Of a stretch of DNA of 55,858 nucleotides, positions 52,202-52,978 are shown in pieces. Made by a program: the position numbers and the translations under genes. The number at the start of each line of letters is the position of its first letter. Position 1 is the first letter of the stretch. The notes below the pieces were generated by a model. It was not told where the DNA came from. It did no database searches and was given only the letters and a program-made list of their open reading frames with translations. Location of the stretch: the IMG/VR virus record IMGVR_UViG_2660237930_000002; one strand, given 5' to 3'. Source of the stretch: a virus. Lineage: Duplodnaviria; Heunggongvirae; Uroviricota; Caudoviricetes.

Positions 52202-52978
52202 TTATGAGCCATTGGTAATCGCACCCATGACAATTTGAAAGAGTTCTTCTGCTCGATTAGTGGAGCCAATTGCACCTCTTTCTCTCGCCATTCTCTTGTG
52301 CTCTGGTAGATCTGAGGACGCATAGATCATAAAAGGAGTTTTGTCTCCCATTGCGCGTAATCTTTCTAGTAAGACATAACCTTCTTGCGCCCCTTCTTTG
52401 CGATCCATATCCGAAATAATAGCTGCAAACTTATTTGTTTTTAACAATTCTAAGGCTTCGTCAGTTGAAAGAGCTAAAGCGAACTCTATTCCCTGTGCCT
52501 CAAATGCCTGTCTTTCGTAAACATTATTTTCTGGTCGATCATCCACCCATAAAATACGATTTCGCCATTTTTCATGCTTACTCTGCCGTTTTGCATTGGA
52601 TACAACGTTGACGATTTTTCGCAGTTGGCTTTCAGTGACCCCTGCACTATTTTCAGGCTGTTTTGCTGTGGCGGCGGTCAATGATGCTGCTGTAGCTATT
52701 TGCGCTCTTAAAAAATTATTTTCATCTTTGAAATCTGACGGCCCGTAAAGCTTATTATGATGTTTCGCAACAAGCCAGAGAAAGCCAAGAAACACAATGA
52801 CAGGAAAGAAAACCATGAAATAAATAAGGGGAGCTATATGCTCTGATAAGCCATTACCAAAGCCAACGACGAAAGAGGCAAATCCATAAACGAGAACAAT
52901 AAAGAGTGCAATGATACCAAGAGGGCTTTTGGTAAATCCTATTGCAGTTTCAGCAAATTTCTCTGGTTCCATATCCAT
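52202..52978 (-). CDS. Membrane-anchored protein with C-terminal CheY-like receiver (REC) domain
   Basis: Two predicted TM helices then a domain matching CheY landmarks by eye (ILWVDD; IISDMD; FMIYASS; EHKR); AT-rich. Confidence 0.55.
   Translation of the reverse strand: MDMEPEKFAETAIGFTKSPLGIIALFIVLVYGFASFVVGFGNGLSEHIAPLIYFMVFFPVIVFLGFLWLVAKHHNKLYGPSDFKDENNFLRAQIATAASLTAATAKQPENSAGVTESQLRKIVNVVSNAKRQSKHEKWRNRILWVDDRPENNVYERQAFEAQGIEFALALSTDEALELLKTNKFAAIISDMDRKEGAQEGYVLLERLRAMGDKTPFMIYASSDLPEHKRMARERGAIGSTNRAEELFQIVMGAITNGS

Follow-up and report, generated by a model that had tools for sequence, protein, structure and literature searches.

The window analysed here, a stretch of 55,858 nucleotides from the IMG/VR virus record IMGVR_UViG_2660237930_000002, carries at positions 52202-52972 (minus strand) a gene for a 256-amino-acid (aa) E. 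coli protein in which an N-terminal two-helix transmembrane (TM) hairpin is joined to a C-terminal receiver domain. Within a large, uncharacterised family in which kinase-less receiver modules are joined to killing domains, it is the minimal member. It could well be a stand-alone, kinase-independent receiver switch that controls a membrane effector and is of a mobile, immune or conflict type, which is the explanation that we tentatively put forward as the best. Residues are numbered from the first codon of the open reading frame (ORF), two codons ahead of the probable translation start.

A receiver domain with an altered active site

The C-terminal part of the protein (aa 138-258; 52205-52567, minus strand) is an atypical receiver domain according to Pfam, PDB profile comparison, AlphaFold and Foldseek. 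The match to Pfam Response_reg (PF00072) is marginal, with 31.7 bits against a gathering score of 30.2 (E 1.8e-7, aa 142-237), and the family profile matches receivers in the PDB, i.e., Francisella 1452, RcsC and CheY4, down to E 5.9e-8. AlphaFold models aa 140-256 at a pLDDT of ~90 with strands and helices in the canonical order of five beta-alpha units, and the top 50 Foldseek matches are receivers throughout (target TM-score 0.75-0.85). The C-terminal ~120 aa are thus modelled as a receiver with a (beta-alpha)5 flavodoxin-like fold, and the kinship with CheY proposed in the initial annotation is borne out by both profile search and structure prediction.

A HMMER scan with aa 86-258 as the query against 1.84 billion cluster representatives (clusters at 50% identity) returned 1113 clusters at E<=1e-10 and 111 at E<=1e-30; the family-wide residue and architecture counts refer to the best 150 representatives, of which 137 match Response_reg at E<=1e-4. 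The acidic pair D146-D147 (52538-52543, minus strand) lies at the end of beta-1, and the phospho-acceptor position D190 lies at the end of beta-3 within D190-M191-D192-R193 (52400-52411, minus strand). All three Asp residues are invariant in the alignment of close homologues (alignment A1). Across the family each Asp of the pair is present in 147 of the 150 representatives, the D190 position is Asp in 144, and R193, at the third position after the acceptor (D+3), is Arg in all 150. The loops of the active-site face are unusually conserved, with N151/N152, Y201, Y219, H227, T240 (139 representatives) and N241 (117 representatives) kept besides the invariant R193. The E. coli and Klebsiella allele carries Asp at D+2 (D192, codon 52403-52405), where 118 representatives have Gly; in receivers this position tunes phosphorylation kinetics.

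The initial annotation had recognised CheY landmarks in the right order. The acidic pair in ILWVDD and the acceptor Asp in IISDMD are indeed present and near-invariant in the family, and two of its five landmarks were misassigned. By hidden Markov model (HMM) alignment to solved receivers, the canonical Thr/Ser position (Thr87, end of beta-4) is A220 and not S221 or S222 of FMIYASS, and the canonical Lys position (Lys109, end of beta-5) is R242 and not K228 of EHKR, which sits in helix alpha-4. A220 is an invariant Ala in close homologues, and family-wide the position holds Ala in 100, Ser in 30 and Thr in 15 of the representatives. At the Lys109 position the commonest residues are Arg (39), Asn (31), Asp (28), Ser (20), Met (8) and Gln (5), and Lys occurs in none. 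The domain is neither a decayed pseudo-receiver nor a canonical receiver: strong selection acts on the part that binds metal and phosphate, and the two residues coupling phosphorylation to the canonical output are replaced. Like CheY-type receivers it has the (beta-alpha)5 fold with an acidic pair and an acceptor Asp. It differs from them in the Ala at the Thr87 position, the Arg or variable residue at the Lys109 position, the invariant Arg at D+3, the N-terminal membrane hairpin and the lack of a cognate kinase nearby.

A conserved membrane hairpin

Hydropathy, charge counts and the AlphaFold helices place the TM hairpin at aa 18-71 (52766-52927, minus strand). By hydropathy TM1 comprises aa 18-41 and TM2 aa 48-71, separated by the six-residue loop NGLSEH, and the helices of the AlphaFold model in this part span aa 19-39 and 45-77; the two TM helices proposed earlier were therefore recovered, in the form of a receiver fused to a membrane hairpin only. 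Because the basic KHHNK comes after TM2, both termini, the receiver included, are predicted by charge to be cytoplasmic (N-in/C-in). The hairpin continues into the juxtamembrane motif KHHNKLYGPSDF(K/R)(D/N)E(D/E)NF (aa 72-90; 52709-52765, minus strand), which is part of the N-terminal module, and then into a variable helical linker (aa 91-137; 52568-52708, minus strand), whose helix 'SLxAATAK' is common to TIR-fused relatives. Alignments of relatives start at query residue ~86-97.

In alignment A1, 29 of the 54 columns of the hairpin and 10 of the 19 columns of the juxtamembrane motif are invariant vs 48 of 119 in the receiver. Both the hairpin and the YGPSDF(K/R)(D/N)E motif are thus conserved above the receiver; for the hairpin this is not to be expected of a passive anchor. 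Within aa 1-100 no Pfam family was matched even at E<=10, and hence none of the SLATT-type two-TM effector families; the sole match of the N-terminal TM module is phrog_26238, whose function is unknown.

Exchange of N-terminal and receiver halves

About 85 of the 150 representatives carry one or two N-terminal TM helices. The linker-plus-receiver module of relatives is 50-63% identical to the window protein, the linker helix 'SLAAATAK' included, and is fused to TIR_2 in nine representatives as well as in four loci, to SIR2_2 in one locus, and to a Peptidase_C14 caspase in three further cases. The module is also part of ParA-like, nSTAND, TPR, WD40, GAF and FtsZ-containing proteins. The receiver half is thus combined with domains that are classic cell killers in bacterial immune systems, and the fused parts are of the effector and sensor types typical of bacterial immune proteins. 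The N-terminal half is exchanged too: the two TM helices with the YGPSDF module are followed by a different C-terminal domain in a Pullulanibacillus protein (L072, 9983-10891), in a protein of an IMG/VR phage contig (L097, 5974-6990), both of which match phrog_26238, and in phrog_26238. Each half is found with other partners, and both are therefore independent and exchangeable modules.

Some of these architectures deserve mention in their own right. Eight Firmicutes loci encode the receiver module behind a ~170-aa N-terminal domain (VYDLLISCPSD...FWTRFGTPT...GTEEEIE) that has no match in Pfam and whose motif may resemble nucleoside deoxyribosyltransferase or TIR-like folds. A protein of 1802 aa from Bradyrhizobium nitroreducens (L073, 8102-13510) combines two receiver modules with GAF domains, an acylphosphatase and a caspase-like domain, and its acylphosphatase hints at acyl-phosphate chemistry around the receiver. 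The C-terminal domain in proteins of the Pullulanibacillus type found no match in a PDB sequence search, and our impression from its sequence is of a PD-(D/E)xK-like motif. The phage-contig copy is flanked on one side by a lambda-P-type replication gene and on the other by a D12 adenine methyltransferase with a HigBA-like pair.

Kinase-less receivers have been described by the Aravind laboratory near caspase, TIR, STAND, TPR and WD40 parts of ternary conflict systems (PMC7159879, PMC8195603), where kinase-independent receivers were proposed to be nucleotide-responsive switches (PMC8195603). Relatives of the window module share such architectures, including a Rhizobium protein labelled 'SAV_2336 N-terminal domain-related'. 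Unlike the present protein, the receivers of those studies are named in passing and within multi-gene ternary systems of multicellular bacteria; no description of the stand-alone 256-aa two-TM form, of its spread or of its conservation was found in the searched literature. The occurrence of the module on both effector-type and sensor-type proteins, and the listing of receivers among the effector-side domains of kinase-less ternary conflict systems (PMC7159879, PMC8195603), raise the alternative of a homotypic adaptor that recruits TM, TIR or caspase proteins to STAND, TPR or WD40 giants in the manner of death-fold or effector-associated domains. Such an adaptor would leave the near-invariant, catalytic-type Asp pocket unexplained, and the E. 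coli island, like most loci, holds a single family member and no STAND partner, so that we give this alternative only a small chance.

The same fusions bear on the question of what the pocket might bind. The domain cREC (Pfam PF20274; Iyer et al. 2021, PMC7824862), proposed to comprise cyclic-phosphate processing enzymes (PMC7824862), is likewise a divergent receiver that keeps the catalytic Asp residues; it always occurs without a kinase partner and goes together with NAD- or ADP-ribose-processing enzymes. Relatives of the window protein are fused to the NAD-consuming TIR and SIR2, and the window gene itself has no neighbour of this kind. The protein might accordingly be read as a cREC-like enzyme or small-molecule receptor, the Asp pocket of which would bind or hydrolyse a nucleotide-derived phosphate signal (of the cyclic ADP-ribose type, a 2',3'-cyclic phosphate or a cyclic nucleotide), with the hairpin localising or executing the response. 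The conserved active-site-face loops, a weak match to Pfam cREC_REC (E 0.0057) and the kinase-independent receivers proposed by Aravind and colleagues (PMC8195603, PMC7824862) are in line with this. However, the cREC_REC score of 17.7 bits falls well below the gathering score of 27, the general Response_reg model scores higher, the list of 25 families obtained for the 150 representatives lacks cREC_REC, and cREC domains sit in RNA-repair and NAD operons and not in TM fusions. We regard this alternative as unlikely; it overlaps with the kinase-independent switch that we favour and differs from it only in the nature of the input.

A receiver gene without conserved neighbours

ORFs were called and clustered in ~80 homologous loci from many phyla, and no gene family recurs beside the homologue. 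A hidden small partner ORF or a conserved flanking sequence was also sought, and none was found within 600 bp of the 32 full-length copies. With no recurring neighbour, flank or small ORF, the receiver gene stands alone. A census of the 147 neighbours within 3.5 kb listed 161 Pfam families, nearly all of them once and none common to more than three neighbours, and contained no recurrent histidine-kinase family; none is annotated around the window gene either. The absence of a nearby kinase, which had been noted for the window, therefore extends to the homologues in the ~80 loci. A distal kinase or a small-molecule donor may still serve the receiver.

This isolation is difficult to reconcile with the initial suggestion that the protein could be an orphaned component of a Detocs-like phospho-relay defence system. 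The Detocs system is a three-gene operon working by phosphotransfer, with the kinase DtcA, the buffer receiver DtcB and the receiver-effector DtcC (Rousset et al., bioRxiv 10.1101/2023.01.24.525353). It is similar in that a receiver is coupled to a swappable cell-killing effector, and some Detocs operons have TM effectors. In contrast to Detocs, the window gene is alone: neither the window nor the homologous loci contain a DtcA-like kinase or DtcB. DtcC has an N-terminal receiver and a C-terminal effector, an order that is reversed in the window protein with its N-terminal TM part and C-terminal receiver. The window protein further lacks the canonical Lys and any PADLOC match, and its gene is complete and under selection. 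A Detocs remnant was thus rejected.

A more conventional alternative is an ordinary orphan response regulator, i.e., a membrane-tethered receiver that is phosphorylated by a distal host kinase and serves as a phosphate sink or a local regulator. Stand-alone receivers are common, and the protein carries the RefSeq label 'response regulator', scores above the Response_reg gathering threshold, has the canonical receiver fold and keeps the Asp triad. Such a regulator would, however, have to do without Lys in the whole family and without Thr in two-thirds of its members, and near-identical proteins occur in E. coli, Acidithiobacillus, Chlorobium and Bacteroidota without a co-transferred kinase. Nor do the fusions to TIR, SIR2 and caspase, in place of DNA-binding or GGDEF-type outputs, or the presence of the gene in only 0.5% of E. 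coli genomes speak for it, and we consider it decidedly improbable.

Selection, spread and mobility

A search of 5.8 billion proteins yielded 1957 relatives; nearly all of the best 120 are ~256 aa long and 67-92% identical, and they come from Klebsiella, Kluyvera, Acidithiobacillus, Pseudomonas, Pectobacterium, Dickeya, Nitrosomonas, Vibrio, Pseudoalteromonas and many metagenomes. A species scan using one genome per species gave 127 relatives, with full-length copies 46-88% identical in Proteobacteria, Chlorobium, Bacteroidota, Kiritimatiellae, Acidobacteria and Planctomycetota as well as in Firmicutes, Actinobacteria, Chloroflexi and one Heimdallarchaeota bin. Between E. coli and Chlorobium or Acidithiobacillus the proportion of synonymous differences (pS) is saturated at 0.8-0.9 vs 0.07-0.10 for non-synonymous differences (pN), and the only unsaturated pair gives a dN/dS of 0.017. 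Judged by these sequence comparisons, the gene is functional, complete and under very strong purifying selection, and is not a remnant. Being intact and strongly constrained yet patchily distributed, it has probably spread by horizontal transfer; its GC content is usually below that of the host locus.

The individual contexts are mostly accessory or mobile. The Vibrio cyclitrophicus homologue is a member of a chromosomal superintegron array and is a cassette of it, because an attC-type repeat (TAACAAAC...GCGTTA family, 8 copies in 16 kb; L089, 8761-8901) begins at its 3' end; the superintegron also carries ParE/Phd, GNAT/TacA and HEPN genes. In one Dickeya genome the homologue is on a P4-like satellite with toxin-antitoxin (TA) pairs nearby, in one metagenome-assembled genome a serine recombinase lies 2.4 kb upstream, and on one viral contig with terminase and portal genes the homologue adjoins an Eco57I-type methylase. 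The only locus with an operonic look is that of Kaistella gelatinilytica (L024, 4785-10807), in which five same-strand genes encode a caspase-like protein of 291 aa, a subtilase of 531 aa, an unknown protein of 365 aa, a weakly patatin-like protein of 526 aa and, with 268 aa, the two-TM receiver homologue.

A single-gene cassette among the TA pairs of the Vibrio superintegron, the TA pairs near the Dickeya copy and carriage on a P4-like satellite and small islands would also suit an addiction or stabilisation toxin, i.e., a membrane toxin held in check by its own receiver that stabilises cassettes, satellites and islands rather than acting against phages. Many copies, however, lie amid housekeeping genes, and an adjacent antitoxin gene or small ORF is not conserved; this alternative has a very small chance of being right.

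Proposed mechanism and evidence against it

In the kinase-independent switch that we propose, the cytoplasmic C-terminal divergent receiver would work without a dedicated histidine kinase, and the acidic pocket of D146, D147 and D190 with the invariant R193 would take in the signal. The signal could be phosphorylation from a ubiquitous small donor, e.g., acetyl phosphate, or a ligand that contains phosphate or derives from a nucleotide and is bound or processed. The change in conformation that follows would lead to self-association of the receiver; activated receivers commonly self-associate through the alpha4-beta5-alpha5 face. The two-helix hairpins would thereby assemble into a membrane-damaging oligomer, and the damage would cause growth arrest or cell death, an outcome of the abortive-infection or conflict type. 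TIR, SIR2 and caspase effectors are activated by oligomerisation, which fits the receiver as an inducible association module. The notion of a membrane effector, already raised in the initial annotation, thus gains comparative support from these fusions and from the conservation of the hairpin above that of the receiver, whereas the trigger, the oligomerisation, the membrane damage and any role against phages are inferred. An exchangeable, oligomerisation-dependent effector under the control of a regulatory domain is also found in immune proteins that unite sensor and a TM, TIR or SIR2 effector in one polypeptide, e.g., Thoeris ThsA variants, the TM effectors of Pycsar and CBASS, and Avs. Unlike in these, the regulatory domain of the window protein is receiver-like and there is no signal-producing partner gene, and neither Pfam nor PADLOC detected a sequence relationship to families of these types.

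A bolder reading, which we consider doubtful, extends the proposal to the whole family: it would be a hitherto unrecognised, very widespread class of kinase-independent immune switches (the 1113 clusters at 50% identity), in which one conserved receiver-like module would read a universal intracellular cue by its Asp pocket and fire an interchangeable two-TM pore, TIR or SIR2 NADase, or caspase, with the E. coli protein as the minimal single-gene form. The cue could then be acetyl phosphate or the energy state, or a nucleotide-derived alarm signal.

Several observations weigh against an immune or conflict role and the mechanism outlined above. The window protein has no PADLOC match at E<=1, and searches of the literature for the family, its accession or TIR-REC-type names, which did not cover Burroughs & Aravind 2020 (J Bacteriol), found no description of it. 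Most neighbours within 3.5 kb are housekeeping genes, and matches to PADLOC models at E<=1e-10 are limited to a handful; given these few matches and the rarely repeated families of the census, we make no claim of enrichment in defence islands. The proteins of E. coli and Chlorobium are 85-88% identical, an extreme conservation, whereas phage-sensing immune proteins for the most part diversify. Sequenced phages and plasmids contain almost no homologues: INPHARED gave no match, and all that PLSDB returned was an E. coli record of 4.9 Mb that is mislabelled, together with a distant domain match in Rhizobium. The absence of the canonical Lys and the altered Thr position in two-thirds of the family make phosphorylation uncertain, and the TM part of the AlphaFold model is of low confidence (pLDDT ~55).

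Location of the gene and flanking signals

The gene had initially been placed inside a prophage, which is contradicted by the attachment (att) cores. The 11-bp core ATTGAGTGGGA occurs as a direct repeat at 13274-13284 and at 51893-51903 (plus strand), and the receiver gene, ~300 bp past the right core, lies outside the pair. A prophage-free strain aligns to the window in two blocks, one ending at 13284, the end of guaA, and the other starting at 51893; as both junctions carry the core, the prophage spans ~13285-51892 (~38.6 kb). It is inserted in the last guaA codons, and the phage side restores the guaA stop codon. Beyond its right end, a low-GC accessory island (51904-55318) of 3.4 kb, with a GC content of 42.7% vs ~50% in the flanks, extends to yfgI and holds, besides the receiver gene, the remnant of a transposase and an ABC-type ATPase. 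Of 5426 complete E. coli genomes, 28 (0.5%) carry this island, always as one block between guaA and yfgI, and in at least nine listed genomes it adjoins guaA directly without the prophage, so that a prophage gene was rejected. In IMG/VR the E. coli gene is matched by prophage calls that run over into the island, and it is probably these that misled the earlier reading.

The ABC-type ATPase (53477-54991, minus strand; 504 aa, AAA_15/AAA_21) has its best PADLOC matches to PDC-M01A (1e-17) and AriA (3e-15), followed by PtuA and GajA; its C-terminal ~240 aa have no Pfam match, and it may be an independent defence candidate. Between it and the receiver gene lies an rve_3 transposase remnant (53066-53461, minus strand), an incomplete integrase-core pseudogene in RefSeq, which suggests that the island was built by accretion. 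Klebsiella has an identical receiver protein at the same site, and an IS3 element there interrupts the ATPase. As an operon partner the ATPase was rejected as a general rule: it travels with the receiver gene in no hosts other than E. coli and Klebsiella, the remnant separates the two, and in Klebsiella the ATPase is disrupted.

The ORF first reported at 52202-52978 was confirmed as a 258-codon frame on the minus strand. Translation probably starts at Met3 (52972), two codons after the ORF start at 52978, because GAGG (52979-52982) precedes this ATG by 6 nt, homologues are 256 aa long and begin with MEPEKF or METxKF, and RefSeq uses the same start for WP_000433086.1 (771 nt, stop included). 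A terminator-like hairpin (52060-52079, minus strand; consensus scan only) lies ~120 nt downstream of the stop codon. Upstream, a 16-bp palindrome AGATCAGACCTGATCT at 53014-53029, 42-57 nt before the likely start, coincides in part with a weak promoter-like site of the minus strand (TTGTCA-17-TACAAC) and might be an operator.

Significance

Even if the protein is not defensive, an identity of 85-88% across phyla combined with a patchy, mobile distribution is unusual for a membrane protein and needs an explanation. If the proposed switch is true, phospho-relay hardware would have been reused for immunity without any kinase, and E. coli would offer a compact single-gene system of 256 aa in which the input to an orphan receiver is open to genetics. 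A large family now labelled only 'response regulator' or 'CheY-like', including its TIR-, SIR2- and caspase-fused forms, would then receive a role as well.

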